From Candidatus Thorarchaeota archaeon (GTDB lineage Archaea; Asgardarchaeota; Thorarchaeia; Thorarchaeales; Thorarchaeaceae), in NCBI GenBank assembly GCA_013388835.1, contig JACAEL010000014.1, positions 161,528 to 225,527 of the forward strand: a stretch of 64,000 bases of DNA, read 5' to 3'. Position numbers and translations under genes: made by a program. A model generated the notes under the pieces. That model searched no databases. It saw nothing but the letters and a program-made list of their open reading frames with translations, and was not told the DNA's origin. Within the stretch, counting starts at the first letter, position 1. The number at the start of each line of letters is the position of its first letter. Positions 8,707 through 49,244 of this stretch are shown here, piece after piece.

Positions 8707-8817
8707 CTGTTTCTTCCTGTACGGTTTCGGCGCGACACTTAAAAGCCGTGATAATTCGGCGTTCGCTAGCTTGCCCACTCGGCATGGGCTTGCAATCTAG
8801 ACCCCGGGACATGACAC

Positions 8818-9948
8818 ATGCAGTTCATACCTCAGCGGCTCGATAGGGTCCATCGCGCCATGAACCGAGACTCATTGGATGCTGTGATACTCACCAGACG
8901 GTCGGACGTTCAGTACTTGACCGGCTATGGGTATCCCAACAAGAGTCTGCCTGCCTGCTGCATCTTGGCAGGTGTTAAGCAGCCTGTCCTCGTAGTATCT
9001 GAGCTGGAGTCGAAGGCCATCGAACACGAGAACACCGTGGCGCAAGTGTTTACGGTATCGAGTGACTTGGATGATGACTGGGGTGGTATTCGTGGGCCGG
9101 TCTTCTGGCAGACCGCTGCGAGGGCGCTGAAGGAGGCCGGTGTACAGACAGGGATGCTAGGACTGCAGCACAGTTCGCTCACAATAAAGGAGTTTGAAGT
9201 GCTCAAGTCGCTACTTCCAGACGCCGGATTCAGAGACTTCTCGGACAGTATGTGGCGGTTAAGACAGGTCAAGGAACCGGGTGAAGTCGATCTGATTCGG
9301 CAGGCGACCCGAGTGGCCGAGATAGGTCTCAGGACAGCCCTTGAGATAATCACCCCTGGTAAGACTGAGGTTGAGGCATCAATCGAGATTGCGGCGGCAA
9401 TGGGCGCTGCGGGCGGGGAACTCCGGGGCATAAGAGCTGCCGTCCTATCCCGTCACCCTCTGCGTCACACACTTGTCAATCCCAGTGTAGAGCGCATTCG
9501 TGCGGACAGTCTTGTTGTGGTTGACATAACTGCCAGTTACGAAGGCTACTTCGCTCAGGTGGCCCGAACGCTTCATACAGGTTCTCCTTCGGCCGAGGAG
9601 CGACGAGCCTATGAGACCGCACTCGAGATACAGAGTACACTTGAAGAGCACCTCCAGTCGGGTGTCGTGTTGGGCGAGGCGGTATCGGCCGCTGTGAGAG
9701 CTGCAGAAGCTGGCTCAGGTCCCCCATGCAGAGCGATTCTTCCCATGGGCAACTCGATTGGTCTTGAACTGAGAGAGCCACCGAGTCTTGTTTCCGGTTC
9801 TACGGAATATGCAAGAGAGGGAATGGTGTTTTCGCTGTGTCCACTCTGTATGTGCTCAGAGCGTATTGCAGCAAAGGTGGGTGACGAGGTACTGGTCACT
9901 TCTGCTGGATGTGAGACTCTCTCAAGTCTAGTGCGCGAAACGATGTAG
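8818..9948 (+). CDS. M24 family metallopeptidase (Xaa-Pro aminopeptidase/dipeptidase-like)
   Basis: 376 aa. It has a creatinase-like N-domain (DAVILTRRSDVQYLTGY) and a pita-bread C-domain (VVVDITASYEGYFAQVARTL, GNSIGLELREPP). Confidence 0.8.
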   Translation: MQFIPQRLDRVHRAMNRDSLDAVILTRRSDVQYLTGYGYPNKSLPACCILAGVKQPVLVVSELESKAIEHENTVAQVFTVSSDLDDDWGGIRGPVFWQTAARALKEAGVQTGMLGLQHSSLTIKEFEVLKSLLPDAGFRDFSDSMWRLRQVKEPGEVDLIRQATRVAEIGLRTALEIITPGKTEVEASIEIAAAMGAAGGELRGIRAAVLSRHPLRHTLVNPSVERIRADSLVVVDITASYEGYFAQVARTLHTGSPSAEERRAYETALEIQSTLEEHLQSGVVLGEAVSAAVRAAEAGSGPPCRAILPMGNSIGLELREPPSLVSGSTEYAREGMVFSLCPLCMCSERIAAKVGDEVLVTSAGCETLSSLVRETM

Positions 9949-23670: not shown

Positions 23671-24981
23671 ATGAAGAAGCGCATTGCCCACATTTCCGAC
23701 ACACACCTTGGCGCTCGACCTCGTGAGGGGGTCCGACCGGGCGTATGGGGCGTAGAGATGCGAGCGAGGCTACTTGAGAACGACTTCTATGAACGCTTCG
23801 CGGAGATATTCGACAGAATCGCCGCTCTTGACCCACCAGTGGACCTTGTGATACACTCAGGAGACCTCTACGACTCCCCGTGGGACAAGAACCCTCAGAG
23901 TCCACCTCCTGTCGCCCTTGAGACTGCTCTGTTGGTGCTCAAGCAGTTCATCCAGAAGACCGGGATTCCCGTGCTTCTTATCGAAGGCAATCATGGTCTA
24001 TATCGTAATATGGAGGTGTCGCTGCTCGACTATCTGCGAATCTCTCTTGACGGAGTGAGTGTCGCCACTTATGTCGACTTCAAGCGAGCCCTCAGCGAGG
24101 GTCGTCCTCTCTTCTTCAGGTATGATGAACTTGATGTCTATTGCTTTCCTTACATCGAACCCGGGCTCTTGGAGTCCGCGGGTCTGGTTTCAGACTTCAA
24201 TGACTGGGTCACGATTCACCAGAAACCATCGAGGAGAGATGCGGTTTCTGTGGCGGTCGCACACGGCATGGATATTGACAAGACCTTGCATCACTCTATC
24301 TTCAGCAACAAGTATGACTATGTAGCTCTTGGACATGACCACCATCAGCACCAATACCGGGAGGATGCGTGGTATGCGGGCTCTCCGGAGCGCTGGAGGT
24401 TCGACGAGTCACGTCACGAGAAGGGATTCCTCTTGGTCGAGATTGAGAAGGGGCAGCCACCCGTTGTCACCCCACAGAAGATTGAGTTGGAGCGGCCCGT
24501 CCTCACCGACCAGATTGTGCTGAGACCTGATATGACCGTAGAGACCGCCATCGAAGTTATCGATGAGTGGTTTGAGTCAAAGGGACTGAAGACGGCGTGG
24601 AACCCCCGGACTGCTGCACGTGTCAGTCTGGCTCTGACTGATGACTCTCCCCAAGTGCGAGGCAATGAGTTGAACATAGCTCTTGAAGGGCTCAGGTCAA
24701 GAGTGTTCACTGAGGGTTCGGGCTACAACATCTCTCAGTTTGTGTGGTCGCTTAAGAGGTCTGATACCGAACACTATGCATCTGCGTTCCCAGAGATTGA
24801 ATCTGAGTACCTCATTGCAGACCCCGAGGCTGACTTCAAGGAGTTCTTGTCCTCGAAACAGCTGGACTCCGGTTATGATCCTGAAGTACTGACTCGTATT
24901 GCTGTGGGTGCTCTCAAGTTCGCTGTGACCCGACCCGACGAGAAACTGACCCTTGAAGGACTTGAGGAGGAGAGAGAGTGA
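23671..24981 (+). CDS. mre11: Mre11 DNA double-strand-break repair nuclease
   Basis: IAHISDTHLG, HSGDLYD, GNHG and GHDH are calcineurin-like phosphoesterase motifs. ATG at 23671 lies 10 nt after the herA stop; the ORF-track start at 23587 overlaps herA. Confidence 0.85.
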   Translation: MKKRIAHISDTHLGARPREGVRPGVWGVEMRARLLENDFYERFAEIFDRIAALDPPVDLVIHSGDLYDSPWDKNPQSPPPVALETALLVLKQFIQKTGIPVLLIEGNHGLYRNMEVSLLDYLRISLDGVSVATYVDFKRALSEGRPLFFRYDELDVYCFPYIEPGLLESAGLVSDFNDWVTIHQKPSRRDAVSVAVAHGMDIDKTLHHSIFSNKYDYVALGHDHHQHQYREDAWYAGSPERWRFDESRHEKGFLLVEIEKGQPPVVTPQKIELERPVLTDQIVLRPDMTVETAIEVIDEWFESKGLKTAWNPRTAARVSLALTDDSPQVRGNELNIALEGLRSRVFTEGSGYNISQFVWSLKRSDTEHYASAFPEIESEYLIADPEADFKEFLSSKQLDSGYDPEVLTRIAVGALKFAVTRPDEKLTLEGLEEERE

Positions 24982-27080
24982 AGATACTCACGCTTGATGT
25001 CAAGGACTTCAAACCCTACCGAAGGTTGACGCTTCCCGAAGAGGGCGAGTTGCCAGAGGGACTCATCCTTGTACGCGGTTCGAATTCCACTGGCAAGTCT
25101 TCCCTGTTCGAGGCCATTCTGTGGGCGCTCTGGGGGCCGAGGGCTGTTGGATCCGGAGTTGAGAATGACGACCTGGTCAGCTTCTCAGGAGTTCAGTGCC
25201 GTGTTCAGATGACCTTCGATGTTGATGGCAAGGTCTACAAGATAGAGCGTTCCTATGACTCGGCGGACGGAATGAAGGTAGTTCTCTATGAGAAGAAGAA
25301 CAACGCATGGAAGAGTGTCGGGGACAAATCTGGTACAGTCGAGAGGAACCTCCAGGAGATCTTGAATCTGGAATGGCAGCAAGCGACTAACACACTGCTA
25401 GTACGCCAGGGTGAGGTTGCACTGATTGCCAACTCGACACCATCAGCTCTTCGAGAGCTCCTGCTGAAGGTCTACAACATAGAACTCATCGAACAGATGG
25501 AAGGGCAGCTTAACCACTTGGAGAAGGACATCGAGGGCAAGCTGAAGGACAAACGCACAAGTTATGAGCGTCCTGAGACCGCCGAGGCCTATGCCTCGCA
25601 GATTCGCGAGAGTGTGAAGCAGCTTCAGCGTGCACATGACGGCAAGAATGAGGAGCTGAAGACAGTCCAATCGCAGCTTGCGAGTCTCCCGGCTCGAGCG
25701 GCGATTCGAGCTCTTCACGACCTGTCTGCTGCCATCGACCGGAAGTCCGCGGAGTTGGCCGAGCGCCAAGAGGTCCTCCAGAACGCGCTTGATGAGGCTG
25801 GTCTAATGGACACCGACCCTAGTCTCATAGAGGCTAGACAGCGCCAGCTGGAGCGGGAGATGGAACGTCTTAATTCATTACAGACAACGATAGACTCGCG
25901 GATATCGGAGATAGATCAGCAGACCGGGCACATCAACGGGGTCGCTCGTGACTTCGGTGCGAAGATTGCCGTCTTGGAATCAGCTGTCCGCGTGTCTGCC
26001 CGCGCCGACATGCTATGTCCAACATGCCAGAAACCTCTGACGTCTGACGAGTGCAATCACATTCTCAGTGAGTACAGGCAGTCAATCTCTCAGGGTGAGC
26101 TCACGCTCAAAGAGCTGAAGGCAGAGAGGTCACGTCTTGCAGGTGAATCTCGTGAGACCCGGGCCAGCATGGTTGTGGTGGAGGGAGCTCTGAAGGGACT
26201 GTCACGACTTAGGAGTCGCCAGTCCGAAGTAGAGGCCTCGAAGAAACAACTTGAGGAAAAGGAAGCGGAACTCCAAGCAGTCTTGAGGACGCTTGGGGTG
26301 AAAAGCATTGAGAGCCTTCTCAAGAAGCACGGAGTCGATGCCGTCGTTGACCTCCATACTCTCATAGAGCAGACATCAACTCGCTATGAGAGCTTGAAGG
26401 GGGAATTGGAGTCCTTCGAACAGCGACTCCAAGACGAACAGCGCGCGCTCGCTGAGCAGGAGGCCAAGGTGATTCTGATGCGTCAACTGCAAGCTGAGAT
26501 TGAGTCACTGGAGAAGATCCTTGAGCATACAAGGTACGTGCGAAGGAAGCTGGTCAAGAGTTTTGTTGCAGATTATGTCTTCCAGAAGCGACTCATTGGA
26601 ATTGTCCGCGGTGCAACGAATCGTTACGTGCGCGAGTTCACGTCAGGGCAGTATACTAGCATCGACCTCGTACCTACTTCTGCCTCAGGAATCGGGGGTC
26701 AAGGAGTGGCTCTGAAAGTACAGGATGCGCGCGACAATGCGCTCAAGAAGACCTCTCAGCTGAGCTACGGAGACAAGACTGCAGTGAGCATCGGTCTCAG
26801 ACTGGGGATCAGTCGGACCATGAGCAGCGTTCGTCCTCTCAGGGGTAGTCCTGCGGTCTCTCCGAGGGTGCGATGCGTGCTGCTCGATGAGCCTCTTGGG
26901 GGACTTGACAAGACACGACGTGCAGCAGTCATCGATGGCCTGACCCGGGACCATAGCTTCAAGCAGATATTCCTCATCACGCATACGGACGTGCAGGGTC
27001 ACGAGGATGTCCCGACAATTGATGTGACACGCACTGGTGCATCAAGCGAAGCCCGGCTCCACATCCCGTCTGATGAGTAG
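24978..27080 (+). CDS. rad50: Rad50 SMC-like ATPase (short, 700 aa)
   Basis: The GTG start overlaps the mre11 stop. Walker A is GSNSTGKSSLFEAI and the central zinc hook is CPTC, flanked by long coiled coils. The signature-like motif is QLSYGDK, Walker B is VLLDEPLGGLD, and there is a final ITHT. Confidence 0.85.
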   Translation: MKILTLDVKDFKPYRRLTLPEEGELPEGLILVRGSNSTGKSSLFEAILWALWGPRAVGSGVENDDLVSFSGVQCRVQMTFDVDGKVYKIERSYDSADGMKVVLYEKKNNAWKSVGDKSGTVERNLQEILNLEWQQATNTLLVRQGEVALIANSTPSALRELLLKVYNIELIEQMEGQLNHLEKDIEGKLKDKRTSYERPETAEAYASQIRESVKQLQRAHDGKNEELKTVQSQLASLPARAAIRALHDLSAAIDRKSAELAERQEVLQNALDEAGLMDTDPSLIEARQRQLEREMERLNSLQTTIDSRISEIDQQTGHINGVARDFGAKIAVLESAVRVSARADMLCPTCQKPLTSDECNHILSEYRQSISQGELTLKELKAERSRLAGESRETRASMVVVEGALKGLSRLRSRQSEVEASKKQLEEKEAELQAVLRTLGVKSIESLLKKHGVDAVVDLHTLIEQTSTRYESLKGELESFEQRLQDEQRALAEQEAKVILMRQLQAEIESLEKILEHTRYVRRKLVKSFVADYVFQKRLIGIVRGATNRYVREFTSGQYTSIDLVPTSASGIGGQGVALKVQDARDNALKKTSQLSYGDKTAVSIGLRLGISRTMSSVRPLRGSPAVSPRVRCVLLDEPLGGLDKTRRAAVIDGLTRDHSFKQIFLITHTDVQGHEDVPTIDVTRTGASSEARLHIPSDE

Positions 27081-27136: not shown

Positions 27137-28774
27137 ATGGCACCCCGATGGGACGTGACCAAGGCTGCAAGGTTCCTGTACGAGTACAAGTTCCTGATAC
27201 TCGTTCTCTATGTTGGTGTCTTGGTGTGGAGTGCGGTCTTCAGTGCGGCAGTGGCCGACTACCTTGACACTTCATACTGGAACTCCCGTGGCGTGTGGCT
27301 TGGCAACGGAGACATCCAGGTGTTCGGCTTCACAGTGGAGTATATGTTCGAGGGGTATGGTGACTACTCCTTCTACTACGTCCACTGGGGACACAATATG
27401 CTCAGAGGTGTCATGCCATACAACAGTGACTTCGGATATCTTCGAATGAATGGCATTACCAATGAGAACGGTCTATTCGTCTTTCCCCCACTGACCGCCG
27501 TCCTCTATGCGATTGGAGTCCTGATCGCTCCAGACAACACAGGTATCGGGCTTCTCCTCGTCATCATGGGCTTCATCACAGTGTTTCCCGTGTATGGCAT
27601 TGCCAAGAATCTGTCGAACAACCGCCATGTGGGCGAAGCGGCAGCTCTGACCTATCTTCTCAATCCCGCAGTGCTCTATCACACCGTGTTTGCTTGGCTG
27701 AATCCCGCTCCGTTCATACTCTTCTTCTTCCTCGGCTTCTATGCTCTCACAGTAGGTAGACGACACACGGGCACACTGCTCATCGTGACTGCTGCACTGT
27801 TCAAGCAGACCGCATGGCTTCTCGGTATTCCATTGATTGTCTTCCTTCTGGTCAAGGAACGGGTCCCAGGCCACTCAACTGGCCATCAGGCCCAGGGTGA
27901 CAGCGACAAAGCGCCACTATCCGTTGAGCCCGACAATGTCAAGCGGCCTCAGCGTGGGATTGACCTTGTCAAGGCGGGTTTCCTCAGGCCCTCCAAATAC
28001 TTGGATATCAGAGGTTTCGTCACCAGCTGTGCTGTGGTCCTGGGTTTTGTGGGCGCCATAGTGTTCCCTTTCTACATCGCACAGCCTCAGATGCTGTACC
28101 ACTTGAGCCTCGCCAGCGGTGGCTTCTGGATCGAGTCGCTCACAGAGCTTCCGGACTATTCTTCGCCGATACGTCTGCAGCACCTTCCCGTTCTAGTAGG
28201 GTTGCCAGACCTTGCTGCAGGGTTGAACTACATCGTGTACTATGGCTTTCTTCTGACCTTCACATTGGCTGTCTCATTCGGCCTGATGATGTTCATTGAC
28301 AAGGACATGACTCGGAGACGTTACTACTTCCGCCATCTGCTATTCTTCACTATGATGATGATACTCCTCGTCAACATCACAGGACCCAGAGGGATTTACA
28401 AGTACTACCTCACCCTCCTTGCTCCCTTCTTCTCTATATTCTCATCCGTGAAGATGGTCACAAGTCAGGAAGAGCACATCCCGTTCTCGTTCTCAATGCT
28501 TTGGATGCCCATCGCCTTGACACTCCTCTACCTTGTACCCAATCGCAACGTGTACTTCGTTTCTCTCATACTGATTGCAGCCGCCTATGCTCTCGCACGT
28601 CAGATTGGTGTTCTCTGGGCTGCTATCACAACACCGGCGAGGCGCTTGTCTGCGCAGACTCGGAAGCTTCTGAGACCGATGCTCTCACACTATCTGATTG
28701 TCAGAGCGAACATCCACAGGGCTCTCTATGGTTCGTTCCAAGAGGCGACAGACAACAATGACGTATGCGCATAG
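27137..28774 (+). CDS. polytopic membrane protein, GT-C-like glycosyltransferase candidate (DUF2029/PMT-like), paralogue 1
   Basis: 545 aa with more than 10 hydrophobic segments. The first-loop motif is GYGDYSFYYVHWGHNMLRGVMPY. It shares many motifs with the next gene. Confidence 0.5.
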   Translation: MAPRWDVTKAARFLYEYKFLILVLYVGVLVWSAVFSAAVADYLDTSYWNSRGVWLGNGDIQVFGFTVEYMFEGYGDYSFYYVHWGHNMLRGVMPYNSDFGYLRMNGITNENGLFVFPPLTAVLYAIGVLIAPDNTGIGLLLVIMGFITVFPVYGIAKNLSNNRHVGEAAALTYLLNPAVLYHTVFAWLNPAPFILFFFLGFYALTVGRRHTGTLLIVTAALFKQTAWLLGIPLIVFLLVKERVPGHSTGHQAQGDSDKAPLSVEPDNVKRPQRGIDLVKAGFLRPSKYLDIRGFVTSCAVVLGFVGAIVFPFYIAQPQMLYHLSLASGGFWIESLTELPDYSSPIRLQHLPVLVGLPDLAAGLNYIVYYGFLLTFTLAVSFGLMMFIDKDMTRRRYYFRHLLFFTMMMILLVNITGPRGIYKYYLTLLAPFFSIFSSVKMVTSQEEHIPFSFSMLWMPIALTLLYLVPNRNVYFVSLILIAAAYALARQIGVLWAAITTPARRLSAQTRKLLRPMLSHYLIVRANIHRALYGSFQEATDNNDVCA

Positions 28775-30320
28775 TGTGCCTTCCCGTCTGGATAGGTCTC
28801 TCAGTAGTTTGGCGACGAGTCTTAGGACTTGGGTTGTCATGCATCCCGTCGAGTTAGTGGTCTTTGTGGGGAGTCTGCTTGTGTGGCTGATGGTACTTGG
28901 AAAAGCCATGGCATTGTTTAACGGCGATGCGCCATACCGTGGCGCTTGGAATGGTATGCTCTACTTGGCTCTTCCGGGTTTCACAGTTGCGTTCAACCTT
29001 GAGGGATGGGCCGACTATGATTACTATTACAATACGTGGGGTCACCAACTGCTGTCTGGCTACCTACCTTATACTGCTGAATTTGAGCATCCCACGACGC
29101 ACGGCACGGAGTATTATGCTCCATACTACTTTCCTCCACTCTTCGTCTATTTGTGTGGTCTTGGTCAGCTGCTGCCATTTGGCCCGTTCGGAATCGCCAT
29201 ACTACTAACAGCGTTTGGTTACATGACTGCTCTGCCGCTCTATGGTATTGCGCGCGAGCTCTCAGGGAGTGAAATGGTTGGGTTGTGTGTGGCGGCCACT
29301 TACCTGTTCAATCCATTGGTCCTGTTCTACACCGCATTCCAGTGGTTGAATCCCGCACCGTTCGTCTTCTTCTCTACGCTGTCGTTTTACCTAGTTGTGA
29401 AGGGGCGGACTGCTTCGGCAGTAGTGAGCATGGTATTTGGAGTGTTCTTCAAGCAGATCTGTCTCTTTCTCTCCTTACCATTGATTGCCTATGTCCTGAA
29501 GAAAAGCTATCTATCCTCCAAGAGGACTCCCGACAGGCATGGTACCATCGTCATCAGTACGTTGAAGGGCCTTGTCAGACATGCCATGGTGGCAGTGCTG
29601 ACCGCTATTGCTCTCTCTCTGCCATATGTGTACGACCTGCCGCACTACTTCTACTCCCTGTTTCAGCGTCTGAGTCCCTTGCATCTGAACAGCCTATCAA
29701 GTCCGCCACCATATGACCACCCGCTCACAGTGGTTGTGCCGTTCATCACTGTTGGGGCTCCGCTCTGGTTGAACCAGCTGCTCAACGCCCTCAGTGAGAC
29801 CTCAGCTGGACTTGTCGGTGGGAGTGTCCTGTTCTTCACATTGATGCTTAGTGAGACCCCGGACCAGAACGCAGACCACGGATACTGGCGAACGGTGCTT
29901 TACCTGACCTTACTTCTGTTTCTGTGGGTCCACTTGTTCGCGCCAAGGGGCGTCTACAAGTACTACTTCGTAGGAATCATGCCTCTCGTCTCTCTACTTT
30001 CAGCACCGAGTATGTGCAAACGTGGTTCCATCTCCATTAGACCATCGCCAGCTATGGTCCTCGGGCCTGTCACACTGAGTCTGCTTATTCTACTGCCCGA
30101 CCGGAACATCTACCTCGCATTCGTCGTCGTCATATTACTGCTATTCGCTGCAGGTCCGAGAGTGGAACACCTCTTCGACTTTGGCCCAGCGTCATCACAG
30201 AGCAACCTGCTGTCATCGCGTGGGACCGGCATTAGGCCAAAGTCTGACTCTTCGCCCTCTCCGCCTTCTTCTTCTCAATGGTCTTTGTCAGGCTGGCCAT
30301 CTTCTCATCGAGCTTCTTGA
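28758..30320 (+). CDS. polytopic membrane protein, GT-C-like glycosyltransferase candidate, paralogue 2
   Basis: ATG at 28758 (MTYAHS) overlaps paralogue 1 by 17 nt. It has GWADYDYYYNTWGHQLLSGYLPY, YLFNPLVLFYTAFQWLNPAPF, FFKQICLFLSLPLIAYVL and PRGVYKYYF, parallel to paralogue 1. Confidence 0.5.
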   Translation: MTYAHSVPSRLDRSLSSLATSLRTWVVMHPVELVVFVGSLLVWLMVLGKAMALFNGDAPYRGAWNGMLYLALPGFTVAFNLEGWADYDYYYNTWGHQLLSGYLPYTAEFEHPTTHGTEYYAPYYFPPLFVYLCGLGQLLPFGPFGIAILLTAFGYMTALPLYGIARELSGSEMVGLCVAATYLFNPLVLFYTAFQWLNPAPFVFFSTLSFYLVVKGRTASAVVSMVFGVFFKQICLFLSLPLIAYVLKKSYLSSKRTPDRHGTIVISTLKGLVRHAMVAVLTAIALSLPYVYDLPHYFYSLFQRLSPLHLNSLSSPPPYDHPLTVVVPFITVGAPLWLNQLLNALSETSAGLVGGSVLFFTLMLSETPDQNADHGYWRTVLYLTLLLFLWVHLFAPRGVYKYYFVGIMPLVSLLSAPSMCKRGSISIRPSPAMVLGPVTLSLLILLPDRNIYLAFVVVILLLFAAGPRVEHLFDFGPASSQSNLLSSRGTGIRPKSDSSPSPPSSSQWSLSGWPSSHRAS

Positions 30321-31419
30321 TCTGCTCCTCGTAGGTCTCCTGTGACATGGTCCCTGACGCGCGTTTCTTTTCAACATGGTCCCTCAGTTGCTGAACTGAA
30401 GAGATCTCCTTTTCGAGACCCTGTATCTCAGCACTTAATGCGGCGACTCTGTCCTCTTCTTCCGTCCGGAACTGCTTCGCTGGGACCATCAGTCCCAGCT
30501 GCTGTTGTGTCTTCTCTGCAAACTCTTGGAACTGGCTCCTCAATGCTTCAATCCGTTCACCGGATGACTCGATCTTCTTGGTGAGCTTTTCTATGTCCTT
30601 CTGCAGGTCAAAGACCGCATTGACGAGCCTCTTCAGAGTAAAGTCGATGTCGGCTGGAACCGTCGTCCGTTGCTCTACAGCCGCGACGGTTCCCGGAGTG
30701 GTCTTCCCCTCTTGTGCTGCTGCAACCTCACTGGGCTTCACAGAACGCGTTATTGCCGCCAGCCAGCGGAATGCATTGACCGCAAAGACTCTGTTGTCGT
30801 CTTTCTTCAGTCCTCCTCCCCTTCGAAAAACCTCGTAGCTGCCAATGCACATGACTCTCCCCTTGCCATGTTCTGCTATAGCTATTATTGGTGCGGCTGG
30901 TGGCTCGGCCTGAGATGAGGTTGATGCAATAGTCATTGCTCCCCCGCTGACTCTGAGCGTGCATGCGGCCGGTACTAGCAGTTCGCTGATGTTCTCGGTC
31001 ACCACATGACCAACTATGTTCGTGATGATGGGCATCGTAGGCATTCCATCATTATTCCTCTCGTCCTTGACTGCCGTGTTTTCGAACTCTATTCCGAATG
31101 TCTTCGAGAGCTGACTCATGTTGTTCATGAGCCCTCTATCGCCTCCGGAGAGTGACAGCAGCATCAGTCCTCCACCATCAAGGACATACTTCCTGAGCGC
31201 GTCCATCTCTGCTGGTCTCAGTTTTGAGCTGTTAGGACAGGCTAGCACGAACACGTCTGAACCCGCAAGTGTCTTGGGCAGAATCATAAAGTCCGTGTAT
31301 GGCTCCACATCGAAGTCATTGTCACGAAGGACCTGTGCAAGCTGCGAGTATGTGGAGTCAATCCTCCCACGGTCGTTCTGCGTCTGATCGAACAGGACTT
31401 TCTTTCTGCCAGCGCTCAA
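30232..31419 (-). CDS. GIFT-domain (GldG/IFT52 N-terminal-like, DUF4350) protein with long C-terminal coiled coil
   Basis: 395 aa with no TM segment. The N-terminal region is VLFDQTQNDRGRIDSTYSQLAQVLRDNDFDVEP...DVFVLACPNSSKLRPAEMDALRKYVLDGGGLMLLSLSGGD...LSKTFGIEFENTAVKDE. The C-terminal ~120 aa are heptad-rich. Confidence 0.55.
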   Translation of the reverse strand: MSAGRKKVLFDQTQNDRGRIDSTYSQLAQVLRDNDFDVEPYTDFMILPKTLAGSDVFVLACPNSSKLRPAEMDALRKYVLDGGGLMLLSLSGGDRGLMNNMSQLSKTFGIEFENTAVKDERNNDGMPTMPIITNIVGHVVTENISELLVPAACTLRVSGGAMTIASTSSQAEPPAAPIIAIAEHGKGRVMCIGSYEVFRRGGGLKKDDNRVFAVNAFRWLAAITRSVKPSEVAAAQEGKTTPGTVAAVEQRTTVPADIDFTLKRLVNAVFDLQKDIEKLTKKIESSGERIEALRSQFQEFAEKTQQQLGLMVPAKQFRTEEEDRVAALSAEIQGLEKEISSVQQLRDHVEKKRASGTMSQETYEEQIKKLDEKMASLTKTIEKKKAERAKSQTLA

Positions 31420-43984: not shown

Positions 43985-44080
43985 TTGTACGAACTCCTTG
44001 GACCAAGGCATGTAATACTACCCCTTAAAGGACGCCTGACGCCTTCCCATACATCCTGTGAGAGGAAGGTACTGCTCCAG

Positions 44081-44821
44081 ATGAGTGACCGACTCCGTTC
44101 CAATCTCTACGCATCGATTGCCACACTTGACCAGCTCAAGAAGATGTACGAGATGGGCGTTGTGGATGTGTCCTCCTTCCGGCGGGAGTCGGAGGCACTC
44201 CTCCAAGACATTGCGGAGAGTATTGATGCCCTTCGCCGGGATGGTCTTGACGTCTCCTCCTTCTTTTGGGGTGAACGGATTCCCGAGTGCTTTCCCGAGG
44301 CCACAAGGCTGATCGAGGTCAGTTCGGGTCGGTCAGACACGGCCTCCCAGTCAGTTGACATGGAACGCTACTACGACCAGATAGGCCTTGCAGCACTTGA
44401 TGTTGCGACCGCCAACTCCTCAAAGGGGATTATGGGGCTTGCTGAGCTGATAGTCGAAGTGGTGAAGCGCCTCCCTCAGTACAAGAACGTCCGTTATGCC
44501 GACGTGATTGAGGCTGTCAATCGCGTGGCTGAACACGGGCTCATCCCAGGGATACGGACTCTCAGGGGTGGAGTGAAGGTGGTCCAACTGCGTCCCCTTG
44601 AACTGGGGCCGGACCAAGCTGAAGTCATCAACCTCGCTGCAACAAGAGGCTCTGTGACCATCGAAGAGGTCATGATGCAGCTCAAGTGGTCAGAGGACCA
44701 TGCTCGACAGGTTCTCACGAGCCTTGTAGATGCGGGGATGGCAGTCGCCAACGTGCGTCTCAGCACTGGGGGCCGATACCACTTCCCCGGACTCAAGGCG
44801 CGTGATGACACGACAACATGA
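44081..44821 (+). CDS. ESCRT-II Vps22/Vps36-like protein (tandem EAP30 winged helices) with a Vps28-core-like N-terminal domain
   Basis: The C-terminal 150 aa parallel SNF8/Vps22: [12 protein letters not shown]..., [78 protein letters not shown]...RYHFPGL. The N-terminal 80 aa ([26 protein letters not shown]...ALLQDI...[23 protein letters not shown]) resemble the Vps28 N-terminal core from memory of the family. ATG at 44081 lies inside ORF 43985-44821. Confidence 0.75.
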   Translation: [246 protein letters not shown]

Positions 44822-44901: not shown

Positions 44902-45654
44902 TCAGTACCCGGCTCTTAATCTGACCGCGCCTCTCTTCTGGTCCACCCATTCAGCGCGCTTCGTGGACACAAGGATGTCCATCACGCGGTGCAGGTCTCT
45001 CTCAGGCAGCGTCCCGAACTCCTCATCGTACTCCTGTACTATCAGGGTCCCAACATCAATCAGGACTGAGCCGGTCCTGAGCGACCACGAATAGACCATG
45101 TCCGCCCAGTCCTCCAGAGGTCGCCAGTACACCCTGAGCTGTCTGTGTTTGTTGTCCCACCACTCCGCCATATCTTGGTCCACAAGCCTGTCACCCAGAA
45201 TCCTGAATGCATCTGACTTCCCTACGATGTCTTTGAACGGCATCTCTGCAAGAAAGACTGCGACTGACACTACGTGGAGCCTCCTGCTCTGGCTCCACTT
45301 CAGCAAGAAGTCCGCCCACTCCTCAGCCCACAGCTCGAGATCTTCTCTTCTAGAAGGAATTGTGTACATCCATTCGGAGTCCTTTGATGTCCCCCATGAT
45401 GGCAACAGCAGAGGTGGTTCAGGTTCAACCCGCGTCTGCACGGTGCGTGGTCTGACCTTCTGGCCGGTTGTTTCTGAGGTTGACGCCTCCTGTGTCTCAG
45501 AGGTCACTTCGGCGGTTCTAGTCCTTCTGACGACCACTTCTGGAGTGTGCTCGGTCTCTTCAAGAGTGACCTCGACCTCAGGCTCGAGTTCTGCCACGTC
45601 CTTCGACTCCGCCTTGACATCCTTCTTCGCTCGCGGTCTCTCTTTGACTGCCAA
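44902..45654 (-). CDS. vps25: ESCRT-II Vps25 (EAP20) homologue with a ~90-aa charged N-terminal extension
   Basis: PPLLLPSW..., LWAEEWADFLLKW, and AEWWDNKHRQLRVYWRPLEDWADMVYSW parallel the eukaryotic Vps25 pattern AEW.d......i.WR.peEWa..Iy.W. There is a second WH domain with FGTLPERDL...ILVSTKRAEWVD. The start lies 3 nt after the vps4 stop. Confidence 0.85.
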   Translation of the reverse strand: MAVKERPRAKKDVKAESKDVAELEPEVEVTLEETEHTPEVVVRRTRTAEVTSETQEASTSETTGQKVRPRTVQTRVEPEPPLLLPSWGTSKDSEWMYTIPSRREDLELWAEEWADFLLKWSQSRRLHVVSVAVFLAEMPFKDIVGKSDAFRILGDRLVDQDMAEWWDNKHRQLRVYWRPLEDWADMVYSWSLRTGSVLIDVGTLIVQEYDEEFGTLPERDLHRVMDILVSTKRAEWVDQKRGAVRLRAGY

Positions 45655-45657
45655 TGG

Positions 45658-46872
45658 CTATGCCCCCTCTGCCCAGTCCATGTATCTCTTGATGTCCTCG
45701 GGTGGCGTAGCAGGCCTGATGCTCTCAATGGCTGTAAGGAAGTCCTCCCTGTCGACAGGCCGGAGGTCAAGTATCTCGCTGTCGTCGTCCATCCGTCCGG
45801 ACCTCTGCAGCTCTCTTATAGGCTCCATGGCAGCCTCACGACAGACCACGCTGATATCCCTCCCACTGTAGCCCTCTGTGAGGTCTGCCAGTTCCGAGAA
45901 AGTGACGCTTGGTGACACTTCGATTTCCTCCATGTGTATCTCGAAGATGGCCTCCCTCGAGGCCTTGTCAGGAAGAGGAATGTAGATGCGCTTCTCGAAT
46001 CGTGACTTGAGGGCAAAGTCCAGCTCCCACGGCAGGTTTGTAGCGCCTATCACTGTGACTCTGTCCTCTGGCTTGCTCGCCACGCCTTGGAGCTCTGTGA
46101 GAAGCTGGGTCTTCATCCTGCGTTCGCCTCCCACATCGTCCCCTGACCTTGAACCACCAACAGAGTCGAGTTCATCTATGAACACGACAGAGGGCTGGTT
46201 CTTCCTTGCGAGTTCGAACAGTGTCATGACAAGTCTCTCTGACTCTCCCAACCACTTGCTGACAATGTTGGCAGCTGAGACGTTGAAGAAGGTCGCGTCC
46301 ACCTCGGATGCCACTGCCTTGGCGATGAGGGTCTTTCCGCATCCCGCAGGGCCATAGAACAGGATGCCTCTCCATGGCTGTCTGGCCTTACCCTTGAACA
46401 GCTCCGGATGCCTCATCGGTGTGACTATCGCATCTGCTATTGCCTGCTTGGCATGTTCCAGTCCTGCCACCTCTGACATCTTCACATCTGGTCGCTCGGT
46501 GATTATCGTGTCTGCAAGCATGTCTTGAAGCCGCTTGGACTCCTCATCCTCCTCCTCAACGCCCTTCCGTGCCGCCTCACGCCTTGCAGCTGGAGCCGCA
46601 CTCACAACATCCGGGGGACTGCTAAGCCCGTCCGGTGTAGTGCTGCTCTTCTTCTTGATCCCAGACAGGTACCTTACCCTGTCCACACACTCCTGTGCCC
46701 TGTCAAGGTAGTGTTTCTGAACACTTGGCAGTGATGCAGACTTGGACATCTTCGTAAGTATCCTGCTCGCCTTCAGGTAGTATGAGCAGGCCTCCTTCTT
46801 CATTCCCCTATTGTCAAGCTCCACTGCCTTCTCCAGCAAGGCCTTGAGACCCAAGTCCAATCTGTCAGACAT
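45658..46872 (-). CDS. vps4: Vps4 (CdvC) MIT-domain AAA+ ATPase
   Basis: 404 aa. It has an N-terminal MIT three-helix region (ACSYYLKASRIL...HYLDRAQECVDRVRYL). Walker A is GILFYGPAGCGKTLIAK, Walker B is VVFIDELDS, followed by GATNLPWELD. Confidence 0.9.
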   Translation of the reverse strand: MSDRLDLGLKALLEKAVELDNRGMKKEACSYYLKASRILTKMSKSASLPSVQKHYLDRAQECVDRVRYLSGIKKKSSTTPDGLSSPPDVVSAAPAARREAARKGVEEEDEESKRLQDMLADTIITERPDVKMSEVAGLEHAKQAIADAIVTPMRHPELFKGKARQPWRGILFYGPAGCGKTLIAKAVASEVDATFFNVSAANIVSKWLGESERLVMTLFELARKNQPSVVFIDELDSVGGSRSGDDVGGERRMKTQLLTELQGVASKPEDRVTVIGATNLPWELDFALKSRFEKRIYIPLPDKASREAIFEIHMEEIEVSPSVTFSELADLTEGYSGRDISVVCREAAMEPIRELQRSGRMDDDSEILDLRPVDREDFLTAIESIRPATPPEDIKRYMDWAEGA

Positions 46873-47024: not shown

Positions 47025-47642
47025 TTGAAGTCCGTGAAGAAGGCGTTCACATGGGGAAGGAAACGACCCGATGCAGCAGAAGTCAGCAGCCAGCTCAGAG
47101 TCCTCGCAAAACAGCTTGAGCGGGAGAGGAATCGACTGGAGAAAGAGGAACGCGAAAACAAGGCCCGCGCAGTTAAGGCAAGGAAGGAGGGCCATATCGA
47201 GGCGTATCGCATGTACGCCGCCGAGATGGTTCGCTTCAGAAGATACGCACTTGGTGTGGACAGATCGCGTCTGCAGATGTTGAAGATCCTGGCGCATCTG
47301 ACTCGCGCACAGACGACTGCTCGTGCAACGATGGCGCTGGACCAAGTGGCAAGTATCTTGGGCATCATTGGAACCAGCACAGATGCCACCAAAGTGGTGG
47401 AGAACCTCGATGAGATCACTCGACGTCTTGAGGAGTTCGAGATAGAGAGCGGTATCACTGACGAAGCATTCGACATGGCCAGCGGGTCGCAGGTGTCTTC
47501 GGAAGACCTCTCCGCTGCAATGGCTGAGATAGATGCTGCCGCAGGAATGGGCGAGGCCGCACCGGTCGCGGCACGACCGGTTTCCGAAGCTGAGGAGCTC
47601 GAAGAGGCAATAAAGTCGCTCGAGCGAGAACTGGGTGTGTGA
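47025..47642 (+). CDS. ESCRT-III (Snf7 family, Vps2/24/46-like) protein
   Basis: 205 aa with a TTG start (GTG alternative at 47034). The basic helical hairpin is QLRVLAKQLERERNRLEKEERENKARAVKARKEGHIEAYRMYAAEMVRFRR. The C-terminus is acidic and ends in a MIM1-like EELEEAIKSLERELGV. Confidence 0.85.
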   Translation: MKSVKKAFTWGRKRPDAAEVSSQLRVLAKQLERERNRLEKEERENKARAVKARKEGHIEAYRMYAAEMVRFRRYALGVDRSRLQMLKILAHLTRAQTTARATMALDQVASILGIIGTSTDATKVVENLDEITRRLEEFEIESGITDEAFDMASGSQVSSEDLSAAMAEIDAAAGMGEAAPVAARPVSEAEELEEAIKSLERELGV

Positions 47643-47675: not shown

Positions 47676-49244
47676 TCATGCGAAGTCCCTGGAACTGCGC
47701 GACAGGTACTCAAGCATACGCCTGTTGATGTAGGACTCCCGCATCAAGTCCCTGTATCTCCTGATGAACTCCTCCGTGACTACCCTTCCCCTCTTCAGAT
47801 CCTCCACCGTGTCTTGGAGGGCCCGACCAATCTCCTCGTGCTCGCGCCGCAGGCGTCTGATCTCCGGAGTGTCACGGCCGTCCCACCGACCCCCTCGGTT
47901 GTAGACCCGTCCGGGTTCCATGTCCTCTTCAGAGTCTGTTGCAAATGGTGGGGCTGCTGAAGTCCTCGGGACCTGTCCAGCCGCCGGATATATGTCCGAA
48001 CTACCTGTCCCGAGAGTATCTCTGTGTACTCCGCCAGTGCTTTTCGTCTGCTGCTGTCTTCTACCGGGCAACAGAAGCGAGTATACCAGCTCCTCAATCT
48101 TGAGCCTTGCGTCGCTCACACCCACATCGTTCTTCTCGAGCCTTCTCACCCTCTGCAGGTCGCTCTGAACGTACTTGTCAAACTTCTTGGCAATCTCGAT
48201 GTAGTCTGTGATAACTCTCTGAGTGTGTTCGTCACAGGCGATTCGTATCTCGCCTTGGCGCAGTTTCAGTACAAGCCGCTTCCTCAGACGGCCATCTTCT
48301 CCCATTGATGTGAGGTAGAGAAGGGGAAAGTCGAAGACAATCTCTCTCTTCTTTCGGATGGTCCCAGTCGCGGCAACAAACAGAATCCTCTTGTTCGTCA
48401 CATAGAGGCAACCGGTCGCCTTGTCTGTCTTCAGAAAGTCGCTACCCACTATCCTGATTTCAGGCAGTGCACACACAGGAAGCTCGTTCACCTGCAATTC
48501 CGAATACTCGTAGAAGCTCGCAAACTCCCTTCTATAGTAGTCTAGTCCTTCGAGCTGAGTCGTGAGTTCTGTGAGTTCACGTGAACAGCTCTCAAGTGCT
48601 TCGTCCACTGACTGTCTGTACTGATTGCCTATGTCTGCAAGACGGCTCACTATGCCTTCGATGAATGGAAACTGATCCACGCTCCACTCAGACTGGTTCA
48701 TCAGACCCTTGGTCTCTGCGGCCATGCGCCTTGCGGATGTGTCAGCTTGATTGACTATTCTGCTCTTGATGCCGGGCAGTTCCTGTTGAAGCTTCTCTGT
48801 TTTGTCTTCCAGCCAACGAAAAGCGAGGAAGTTCGCCATGCGCAGGGAGACAAGCATTCTCTTCGCCATGGTGAGTCTGTTGCTGAACTCCCTTAGCTTC
48901 ACATGACCGTATTGGATTGACATGAATCCCCGTTTCATGTCCTGCCCCAGCCTTCTCCGTTTCTCTTCTATCTCCAGCACCCTTGTGGAGTGGCACTGTG
49001 GGCAGGTCTCTTCGATGTGCTTTCCAGTACTGATGTTCTCAGAGTCGCACTCGGCACACTTTCGAGGTTTCTCGGCATTCTGAACAGTACCGAGACTGGC
49101 GTGGCAGTTTCCGCACACATAGAACTCGTTGGAGCGGGTTGTGAGACAGTCCAGACACAGAAGCTGGCCGCACTCCTCACACATGTGCGTTGCCTTTGTC
49201 GCCTTGCAGGACGCGCATACCTGTGAAGAAGGGTCCTGTCTCAC
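47676..49244 (-). CDS. multidomain protein: B-box-like cross-brace zinc finger, zinc ribbon, coiled coil, PH/GRAM-like domain, C-terminal steadiness-box-like helix pair (candidate ESCRT-I Vps23 analogue)
   Basis: 522 aa. The first zinc finger is C10-x2-C-x8-C-x2-C-x4-C-x2-C-x10-C-x2-C(H); the zinc ribbon is C63-x2-C...C81-x2-C. Residues 100-255 are helical. Residues ~258-356 read GCLYVTNKRILFVAATGTIRKKREIVFDFPLLYLTSMG...LVLKLRQGEIRIACD (PH/GRAM/bPH pattern). Residues ~462-515 read RRLRREHEEIGRALQDTVEDLKRGRVVTEEFIRRYRDLMRESYINRRMLEYL. Confidence 0.6.
   Translation of the reverse strand: MRQDPSSQVCASCKATKATHMCEECGQLLCLDCLTTRSNEFYVCGNCHASLGTVQNAEKPRKCAECDSENISTGKHIEETCPQCHSTRVLEIEEKRRRLGQDMKRGFMSIQYGHVKLREFSNRLTMAKRMLVSLRMANFLAFRWLEDKTEKLQQELPGIKSRIVNQADTSARRMAAETKGLMNQSEWSVDQFPFIEGIVSRLADIGNQYRQSVDEALESCSRELTELTTQLEGLDYYRREFASFYEYSELQVNELPVCALPEIRIVGSDFLKTDKATGCLYVTNKRILFVAATGTIRKKREIVFDFPLLYLTSMGEDGRLRKRLVLKLRQGEIRIACDEHTQRVITDYIEIAKKFDKYVQSDLQRVRRLEKNDVGVSDARLKIEELVYSLLLPGRRQQQTKSTGGVHRDTLGTGSSDIYPAAGQVPRTSAAPPFATDSEEDMEPGRVYNRGGRWDGRDTPEIRRLRREHEEIGRALQDTVEDLKRGRVVTEEFIRRYRDLMRESYINRRMLEYLSRSSRDFA

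Follow-up and report, generated by a model that had tools for sequence, protein, structure and literature searches.

Targeting of the ESCRT machinery in Asgard archaea stands at the centre of models for the origin of eukaryotic endomembranes. It poses the sharpest question in Loki- and Thorarchaeia, where UEV-Vps23 is missing, and in Thorarchaeota, where ubiquitin is missing as well; both absences have been reported for Thorarchaeota (UEV-Vps23, bioRxiv 10.1101/2023.07.25.550441; ubiquitin, PMC9192718). In the window, the whole 64,000-nucleotide stretch analysed here, the first-pass annotation had described a gene convergent with ESCRT-III and neighbouring a Vps22 fusion, at a locus with no ubiquitin genes, whose zinc fingers and PH-like module would replace the UEV domain. 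The neighbours were as it stated, a Vps22-Vps25-Vps4-ESCRT-III cluster; no ubiquitin or E2 was found within the window by phmmer, and Pfam gave no UEV or UQ_con match in the window protein or in 31 homologues, residues 1-91 being made up of zinc modules. What could act upstream of such a machinery? The reading that we favour, with a probability of about 0.6, is that the 522-aa product of the convergent gene would be a UEV-less, ESCRT-I-like adaptor on the membrane, coupled to ESCRT-II via the hairpin of Vps22.

The protein is encoded by an ORF with a GTG start, a start position common to more than 160 Thorarchaeota homologues at ~50% identity, and its architecture is kept both in more than 160 Thorarchaeota homologues and, over Asgard as a whole, in 124 clusters formed at 50% identity. 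Taken singly, it fell below all Pfam gathering thresholds, and none of the NCBIfam families matched it. The AlphaFold2 model of the whole protein had a mean pLDDT of 80.5. Five parts had been proposed for it, namely a zinc-binding cysteine pattern, a ribbon, a run of helices, a PH-like sandwich, and a linker with a C-terminal hairpin, and each was found. The features of the gene and of its neighbours are as follows.

47676..49244 (-): whole gene, protein of the Znr_CC_PH_SB family, 522 aa, stop included
49101..49217 (-): four CxxC pairs (C10/13, C22/25, C30/33, C44/47, plus H48), residues 10-48, two predicted zinc sites (sequence, invariant Cys)
48990..49058 (-): zinc ribbon CxxC-x14-CxxC(H), residues 63-85, third predicted zinc site (sequence, AlphaFold2, Foldseek)
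48504..48971 (-): family-specific helical region, residues 92-247 (AlphaFold2, pLDDT mostly >90)
48186..48479 (-): PH-like domain, residues 256-353, with conserved basic loops (AlphaFold2, Foldseek, Pfam)
48072..48182 (-): conserved helices after the PH domain, residues 355-391 (alignment, AlphaFold2)
47880..48059 (-): disordered linker, residues 396-455 (pLDDT <50; sequence and length variable across the family)
47682..47867 (-): steadiness-box (Vps23_core-type) helical hairpin, residues 460-521 (AlphaFold2, profiles, Pfam)
47025..47642 (+): ESCRT-III (Snf7 family), convergent neighbour, closest to CHMP1/CHMP2, the IIIA class
45658..46872 (-): Vps4 (MIT, AAA and Vps4_C)
44902..45654 (-): Vps25 (ESCRT-II) with an N-terminal extension
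44081..44821 (+): Vps22/EAP30, true start ATG 44081
44081-44260 (+): marginally Vps28-N-like steadiness-box hairpin, Vps22 residues 1-60, proposed partner of the tail (profiles, Makarova Table S3)

This architecture was named Znr_CC_PH_SB (asCOG cog.011556) by Makarova et al. 2024 (mBio, PMC10936438), who regarded it as a likely ESCRT-I component and proposed PH-mediated membrane association; cog.011556 was also used as a 'Steadiness/Vps23 box' asCOG (bioRxiv 10.1101/2023.07.25.550441). The Thorarchaeota protein has six CxxC pairs, helices leading up to a PH domain, and a C-terminal steadiness-box (SB) hairpin, as members of that family do. A Thorarchaeota profile retrieved the protein P0134 with E=2.1e-46, and the P0134 locus (L35Ae-X-MetE-hyp-Snf7) corresponds to the published Lokiarchaeum locus (GC14_75 As_004-p_01543), so that homology to the Lokiarchaeum member was supported indirectly, via P0134. 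Homologues bearing organism names, a minority of the matches, were all from Asgard archaea, and there was no bacterial member among them. On these sequence comparisons, the 522-aa protein is a Thorarchaeota orthologue of Znr_CC_PH_SB, a family specific to Asgard archaea. Since both the architecture and the ESCRT-I reading were already in print, it is a member of a known family and not a discovery, contrary to the novelty implied on the first pass; the adaptor idea having been published before, the value of the present analysis is confirmation with a few added details.

The C-terminal part had been compared with the Vps23 steadiness box over positions 47700-47861, corresponding to residues 462-515. 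AlphaFold2 placed two helices there, at residues 460-484 and 490-521. When a hairpin profile (A4) built from 39 diverse family members was compared with the PDB, Vps23, TSG101 and VPS37B were the top natural proteins, with alignments covering both helices (yeast Vps23 core, E=5.8e-7, 1.2e-6 and 6.2e-6; TSG101, 2.1e-4; VPS37B, 5.4e-3). The family-wide profile was decisive, as a Thorarchaeota-only hairpin profile reached Vps23 only at E=0.03, and the window protein itself matched Pfam Vps23_core below threshold (E=0.17 at full length, 0.0073 for the tail alone). Among the 39 members, Vps23_core was found in 27 (best 3.8e-7) and SHOCT (PF09851) in two (best E=0.0097). The SHOCT domain, which the earlier annotation had itself named as the outcome that would count against a steadiness box, was thus not what these counts returned, and the SHOCT reading of the helix pair was rejected in favour of a Vps23-type hairpin. 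The TSG101 sequence given for the comparison on the first pass was almost right; PDB 6vme_B reads ...EALRRGVIDLDVFLKHVRLLSRKQFQLRALMQKAR.

The proposed partner of this hairpin is the N-terminus of the neighbouring Vps22. A Vps28-like SB was recorded there by HHpred at 99% for the Thorarchaeota Vps22 KXH75178.1 (Makarova Table S3, PMC10936438), which agrees with the earlier claim, while the searches made here supported it only marginally: the Vps22 N-terminus matched Pfam VPS28 at E=0.062, and yeast Vps28 appeared at ranks 3-6 in the PDB search with E ~0.1. It can therefore be described as marginally Vps28-N-like. An hhalign comparison of the tail and Vps22 hairpin profiles gave a probability of 73% and E=3e-5.

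The same gene cluster was found on four other Thorarchaeota contigs. This synteny reaches into housekeeping genes and is therefore not independent evidence of functional linkage. Outside Thorarchaeota, family members were found beside a Snf7 gene in three settings that otherwise differ, one of which reproduces the Lokiarchaeum cog.011556 locus of Makarova Table S2, so that linkage of the family to ESCRT genes was borne out in other Asgard lineages for ESCRT-III. Since the conserved neighbour in those lineages is ESCRT-III and not Vps22 or Vps25, the linkage lends no specific support to an interaction with Vps22. The idea that the adjacent ESCRT-III is always the same paralogue was rejected: it is CHMP1/2-like in the window and Vps20/32/60-like in locus L005.

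In Crenarchaeota, CdvB is recruited by CdvA. A corresponding role for the Thorarchaeota protein, with the PH domain as a membrane anchor and ESCRT-III recruited directly for division or scission, bypassing ESCRT-II, appears unlikely, although it is the alternative that survives best. It would fit the observation that a Snf7-family gene is the sole ESCRT neighbour conserved across lineages, lying convergent with and directly beside the gene in the window and in locus L008, and Pfam CdvA was indeed matched by three of the 39 hairpins; SB and CdvA hairpins have also been linked in the literature (PMC10936438; bioRxiv 10.1101/2023.07.25.550441). However, nine times as many hairpins matched Vps23_core (27/39 vs 3/39), both a PRC barrel and a recognisable E3B-like ESCRT-III-binding peptide are absent, and a matching SB hairpin is carried by Vps22 in Thorarchaeota and other Asgard archaea. 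The change of adjoining ESCRT-III, from IIIA in Thorarchaeota to IIIB in Loki-type loci, also means that no single paralogue stands out as the conserved partner.

At the N-terminus, the cysteine spacing given on the first pass was exact, both for the eight-Cys pattern (C10-x2-C13-x8-C22-x2-C25-x4-C30-x2-C33-x10-C44-x2-C47-H48) and for the CxxC-x14-CxxC ribbon (C63-x2-C66-x14-C81-x2-C84). All 12 cysteines were invariant in the Thorarchaeota alignment, enough for three zinc sites, and 157 of the 205 N-termini compared across the family carried the 12-Cys pattern; most of the others appear to be truncated at the N-terminus or to have a miscalled start codon. Pfam DZR matched 20 of 31 members. For the further claim that the first eight cysteines form a B-box or RING-like module, the observations point both ways. 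The spacing holds, and in one subfamily (P0183 and P0189) Cys pairs 1 and 3 were both lost while pairs 2 and 4 were kept, which hints at interleaved (cross-brace) ligation, although the co-loss was probably one evolutionary event because the two proteins are 35% identical. On the other hand, zf-B_box (PF00643) matched the window protein at E=1e-3 with 19.7 bits, under the Pfam cutoff of 24.1. The AlphaFold2 model of residues 1-95 lacks the B-box helix and has a strand in place of a helix after Cys pair 3, and Foldseek returned zinc-ribbon types only for this segment (MCM N-terminal domain, PF0610, ribosomal proteins and Pirh2 C-terminal domain), with E>=0.08.

If the module were a true cross-brace taking part in ubiquitin-like conjugation or recognition, the protein might act like an E3 or as a receptor for a modifier. 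Besides the subfamily lacking Cys pairs 1 and 3, this idea draws on zf-B_box matches at E<=1 in 16 of 31 homologues (best 7.9e-6), on the precomputed PF00643 match or B-box annotation carried by a few homologues, and on weak matches of the zinc-module profile to the RNF4 RING and ZFYVE19 FYVE domains. We consider it improbable, given the subthreshold B-box score of the window protein, the ribbon-like model, the probably single origin of the co-loss, and a locus where ubiquitin and E2 genes were not found, in a lineage reported to be without ubiquitin. Under the adaptor reading, the zinc module would most likely be the head by which cargo or a partner is recognised, in a lineage lacking both ubiquitin and UEV-Vps23.

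The PH/GRAM/GLUE-like sandwich that had been read at 48177-48473 (residues 258-356) was recovered by structure, profile and Pfam searches alike. The AlphaFold2 fold has seven strands at residues 256-336 and a helix at 339-353, and Foldseek assigned a probability of 1.0 to many PH domains, including those of Vps36 GLUE (2cay, TMt 0.55), Lam6 and Sec3. Foldseek matches to DH-PH and BAR-PH proteins were rejected as whole-protein likenesses; with TM 0.1-0.25 and an rmsd of ~20 Å, they were taken as PH matches plus incidental helices. A Thorarchaeota-only PH profile did not find PH domains in the PDB and a more diverse one was required; with a diverse-family profile, all five sequence matches were PH-like (bacterial PH, Vps36 GLUE and GRAM). 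By Pfam, bPH_3 was matched by 17 of 24 members, the Vps36 GLUE family by nine and GRAM by six, and the domain belongs to the bPH/GRAM/GLUE class. The conserved basic residues of its loops include K275, R286, R297, R319, R321 and K322.

That bPH_3 is the commonest of these matches and that the Thorarchaeota synteny includes housekeeping genes would suit a generic prokaryotic membrane-associated protein (a bacterial PH domain with a SHOCT-like helix pair) lying near ESCRT genes by chance, but this is very improbable given two SHOCT against 27 Vps23_core matches among the 39 hairpins, Vps23, TSG101 and VPS37B as the top natural PDB matches, a Snf7 linkage recurring in three unrelated contexts, and named homologues, a minority of the matches, that are all Asgard and never bacterial.

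Between the zinc modules and the PH domain, AlphaFold2 helices were found at residues 92-136, 143-177 and 189-247 (~155 helical residues). Searches with region 92-247 gave generic coiled-coil or viral-fusion-protein matches and scattered Pfam noise only. The layout suggested earlier, a stalk followed by a steadiness box, does not hold, as the helices and the hairpin lie on either side of the PH domain and of a disordered linker of 60 aa; in the model, the helical region does not continue into the hairpin as a Vps23-type stalk would.

Taken as an ESCRT-I-like adaptor, the protein would be held on the membrane by its PH domain, via the conserved basic loops, and the flexible linker would let the C-terminal hairpin pack on other SB hairpins, in a manner resembling the ESCRT-I headpiece of eukaryotes. 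Its partner would most likely be the Vps28-like hairpin that forms the N-terminal end of the adjoining Vps22, and a membrane or cargo sensor could thereby be coupled directly to ESCRT-II (Vps22/Vps25), and then to ESCRT-III and Vps4. A fuller version, which we offer tentatively, would make the protein the sole Thorarchaeota equivalent of ESCRT-I. It would form a minimal headpiece with the Vps28-type hairpin of Vps22, to which the GIFT-domain protein at 30232-31419 might add a third hairpin, merging ESCRT-I and ESCRT-II, while an interleaved B-box/RING-like head and the PH domain would select membrane or cargo by a non-ubiquitin signal. If true, this would represent a pre-ubiquitin mode of ESCRT targeting. 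Znr_CC_PH_SB is the best candidate upstream adaptor in lineages without UEV-Vps23, and the Thorarchaeota version, being compact, located inside a complete ESCRT cluster and well ordered in its predicted structure, lends itself well to binding and liposome work.

Compared with the published Znr_CC_PH_SB members, the Thorarchaeota protein has the same domain order (three zinc modules, helical region, PH and SB), the same restriction to Asgard and an adjoining ESCRT-III gene. Unlike the other members, the Thorarchaeota proteins are ~520 aa long instead of 600-900 aa because their disordered linker is shorter, have a distinct SB consensus (GRLVxEDFIRRYRxLMRDSY) and are encoded within a full Vps22-Vps25-Vps4-ESCRT-III cluster.

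With crenarchaeal CdvA it shares a membrane-binding domain, a coiled coil, an SB-like hairpin and a gene adjoining ESCRT-III. It differs in having a PH domain in place of the PRC barrel (for which Pfam gave no match in the window protein), a family hairpin much closer to Vps23_core, and no E3B peptide.

Yeast Vps36 has NZF fingers inserted in its PH domain and C-terminal winged-helix domains. The Thorarchaeota protein resembles its GLUE domain in that zinc fingers accompany a PH-like fold (GRAM/GLUE class) within an adaptor of the ESCRT system, but its zinc modules are N-terminal ribbons or knuckles, its PH domain is uninterrupted (256-353), and winged-helix domains are absent according to Pfam and AlphaFold2.

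Unlike Vps23/TSG101, it has no UEV domain, no P(S/T)AP-binding function and no continuous stalk helix leading into the headpiece, and carries zinc modules and a PH domain instead. Like Vps23/TSG101, it ends in a steadiness-box hairpin that can be aligned over both helices, and it would act as an upstream adaptor docking on a Vps28-type hairpin.

The gene at 47676-49244 lies among ESCRT genes, and the neighbouring genes and the Vps22 start codon were as the first-pass annotation had given them:

44081-44821, plus strand: Vps22/EAP30, ATG start at 44081 (listed mechanically as 43985-44821)
44902-45654, minus strand: Vps25, with an acidic, low-complexity N-terminal extension of ~95 aa and a Pfam ESCRT-II match at residues 96-196
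45658-46872, minus strand: Vps4
47025-47642, plus strand: Snf7/ESCRT-III, convergent with the gene under study across a 33-nt gap
47676-49244, minus strand: the gene under study, 522 aa, GTG start

The Vps22 start was placed at ATG 44081 and not at TTG 43985, which falls directly after the AspRS stop, because homologues begin with MxxRLxSELYASIATLDQLKK. Neither ubiquitin nor E2 was detected in the window by phmmer, and Thorarchaeota have been described as lacking ubiquitin (Hatano et al. 2022, PMC9192718).

Over 160 homologues share ~50% identity with the 522-aa protein. Nearly all are annotated as hypothetical proteins of Thorarchaeota, and in their alignment the N-termini and all domain boundaries are in register with it. 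About 25 database homologues (e.g. P0012, P0014 and P0060) start with MCEDCG and lack the first Cys pair; the probable cause is a start codon miscalled at an internal Met, not true truncation. An exhaustive profile search extended the family beyond Thorarchaeota to 124 clusters at 50% identity, with Promethearchaeota and Sigynarchaeum among the named sources, full-length proteins of roughly 460-910 aa and a C-terminal hairpin alignable throughout. The locus of the Loki-type member P0134 (L35Ae - X - MetE - hypothetical - Snf7) has the context tabulated for the Lokiarchaeum member of Znr_CC_PH_SB, asCOG cog.011556, between L35Ae and MetE and beside a Vps20-type ESCRT-III (Makarova et al. 2024, Table S2, PMC10936438), which ties our protein to that family. 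It is a new orthologue of a known family, and the published computational annotation was re-derived here. The family has been regarded as a likely ESCRT-I component, probably ancestral in Asgard, with a PH domain that, like that of Vps36, is expected to associate with membranes (Makarova et al., PMC10936438); Loki- and Thorarchaeia are reported to lack UEV-Vps23, and cog.011556 has served as a "Steadiness/Vps23 box" asCOG (bioRxiv 10.1101/2023.07.25.550441, 2023). Our literature search found no experimental work on Znr_CC_PH_SB. The first-pass annotation, which proposed a UEV-less Vps23 analogue, is confirmed in its observation and largely right in its interpretation.

The block TldD/PmbA - target - Snf7 - Vps4 - Vps25 - Vps22 - AspRS was identical in four other Thorarchaeota contigs, but says little on its own about functional linkage, since the flanking housekeeping genes are also syntenic. 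Outside Thorarchaeota, besides the P0134 locus, a Snf7 gene lies 4.3 kb downstream of P0161, and P0124 (30% identity) faces a pair of adjacent, convergent Snf7 genes amid entirely different flanking genes, indicating that the conserved neighbour of the family is an ESCRT-III gene; the P0146 contig stops before any Snf7 gene. The Snf7 in the window is closest to CHMP1B/CHMP2A (class IIIA), whereas the ESCRT-III of the P0134 locus (at 8763-9401 of that locus) is Vps20/32/60-like (class IIIB), so that the linkage is to an ESCRT-III and not to one paralogue. The main rival to an ESCRT-I-like role, a CdvA-like one in which the protein recruits ESCRT-III directly, is favoured by this pattern, since ESCRT-III is the only conserved neighbour outside Thorarchaeota.

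All five proposed parts were present in the AlphaFold2 model of the protein, built on the Thorarchaeota alignment (mean pLDDT 80.5):

residues 1-91: Zn modules
residues 92-136, 143-177 and 189-247: three long helices
residues 256-336 and 339-353: seven-stranded sandwich and capping helix
as far as residue 391: two more helices after the PH domain
residues 396-455: disordered stretch
residues 460-484/490-521: C-terminal helical hairpin

The Pfam Vps23_core match of the single protein was weak (E=0.17), and a Thorarchaeota-only tail profile placed yeast Vps23 in the top three PDB matches, yet at E=0.03. A profile of 39 diverse family hairpins gave the following matches, each covering both helices:

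PDB matches of the family hairpin profile (E-value)
2f66_A, yeast Vps23 core: 5.8e-7
2p22_A, yeast Vps23 core: 1.2e-6
2caz_A, yeast Vps23 core: 6.2e-6
6vme_B, human TSG101: 2.1e-4
6vme_C, VPS37B: 5.4e-3

Scanned singly, 27 of the 39 hairpins matched Vps23_core (best 3.8e-7), and the other Pfam matches were to CdvA (3), Mod_r (3) and SHOCT (2). By these profile matches the tail is a Vps23-type steadiness box, as the first-pass annotation had suspected, and a SHOCT domain was rejected on the counts of 2/39 against 27/39. The outcome that the first-pass annotation had named as refuting, a SHOCT match in the absence of any Vps23_core signal, did not arise.

A partner hairpin had been proposed at the Vps22 N-terminus. 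Published HHpred assigned residues 1-70 of a Thorarchaeota Vps22 (KXH75178.1) to PF03997 at 99%, and Asgard Vps22 was described as fused to a steadiness box (Makarova et al., Table S3, PMC10936438). In our tests a Vps28-N-like hairpin at residues 1-60 (ELYASIATLDQLKKMYDxGxVD...) was marginal (Pfam VPS28, E=0.062; yeast Vps28 core chains at PDB ranks 3-6, E about 0.1, with the headpiece hairpin in register), and hhalign paired it with the target hairpin at 73% probability (E=3e-5).

A second steadiness-box-type protein (30232-31419, minus strand, 395 aa) is encoded 16 kb away from the ESCRT cluster. It has an IFT52 GIFT domain at the N-terminus (PF23355, E=4.2e-16; 59 bits, cutoff 27) and a coiled coil, and the hairpin at its C-terminus (residues 329-390) matches the family-wide steadiness box profile at E=1.3e-7 among window ORF segments; the protein could be a further headpiece partner. 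Elsewhere in the window, 27137-28774 and 28698-30320 (both plus strand) encode adjacent paralogous multi-pass membrane proteins of ~540 aa sharing the motifs YYYxxWGHxxLxGxxPY and NPAPF, which looks like a tandem duplication. The 700-aa product of 24978-27080 (plus strand) is an SMC/Rad50-like ATPase: a P-loop (GSNSTGKSS) lies at its N-terminus and a signature region at its C-terminus, and the CPTC motif at the centre of its long coiled coil may be a zinc hook.

The sandwich has a PH fold, as had been claimed: Foldseek with the full model returned PH domains at probability 1.0, first DH-PH proteins (E about 2e-4), followed by the Lam6 PH-like, Sec3 PH and Vps36 GLUE (2cay; TMt 0.55, rmsd 4.4 Å, 117 columns) domains. 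A diverse PH profile gave only five PDB matches at E<=10, all PH-like (two bacterial PH domains, Vps36 twice and one GRAM protein), and the PH regions of 24 members matched bPH_3 (17), Vps36_ESCRT-II (9, best 2.7e-5) and GRAM (6), which supports a bPH/GRAM/GLUE-class PH domain and no closer assignment. Near-invariant basic residues in the strand-connecting loops of Thorarchaeota homologues (K275, R286, R297, R319, R321 and K322) would fit binding to an acidic membrane surface.

The previously quoted Cys spacings were exact. All 12 Cys are invariant in a 40-sequence Thorarchaeota alignment, and their conservation makes three Zn sites certain. On the suggested B-box-like cross-brace of the first eight Cys the evidence points both ways. 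The x4 spacing of pairs 2 and 3 is short, as is typical for interleaved fingers; zf-B_box matched 16 of 31 Thorarchaeota members (best 7.9e-6), with the target at 19.7 bits, under the Pfam cutoff of 24.1. Subfamily members P0183 and P0189 lack pairs 1 and 3 together and keep pairs 2, 4, 5 and 6 at canonical spacing, which makes sense only if the sites are 1+3 and 2+4, although at 35% identity the co-loss is probably one event; in P0236 a Cys of pair 3 is replaced by Asp. Both observations hint at interleaved ligation. Against it, pair 3 is followed by a long strand and no helix in the AlphaFold2 model for residues 1-95 (pLDDT 78), the Foldseek matches of this model were all weak Zn-ribbon types (E 0.08 or more: MCM N-terminal Zn motif, PF0610, ribosomal Zn ribbons, Pirh2 C-terminal domain) with no B-box, RING or PHD among the top 50, and the Pfam double zinc ribbon DZR matched 20 of the 31 members. 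In print the family is described as having "three Zn ribbons" (Makarova et al. 2024, PMC10936438).

In an ESCRT-I-like role, the PH domain would sit on the membrane, perhaps together with the helical bundle, and the flexible linker would allow the hairpin to enter a headpiece like that of ESCRT-I, where its most plausible partner would be the Vps28-type hairpin on Vps22. This headpiece would bring in Vps22/Vps25, then ESCRT-III and Vps4, and the Zn head would recognise cargo or a partner.

Two likenesses to eukaryotic ESCRT proteins drawn in the first-pass annotation did not hold. One was to the Vps36 GLUE domain with inserted fingers; the other was a stalk followed by a steadiness box. In Vps23 the stalk continues into the hairpin, whereas here the helical region and the hairpin lie apart, with the PH domain and 60 aa of flexible linker in between.
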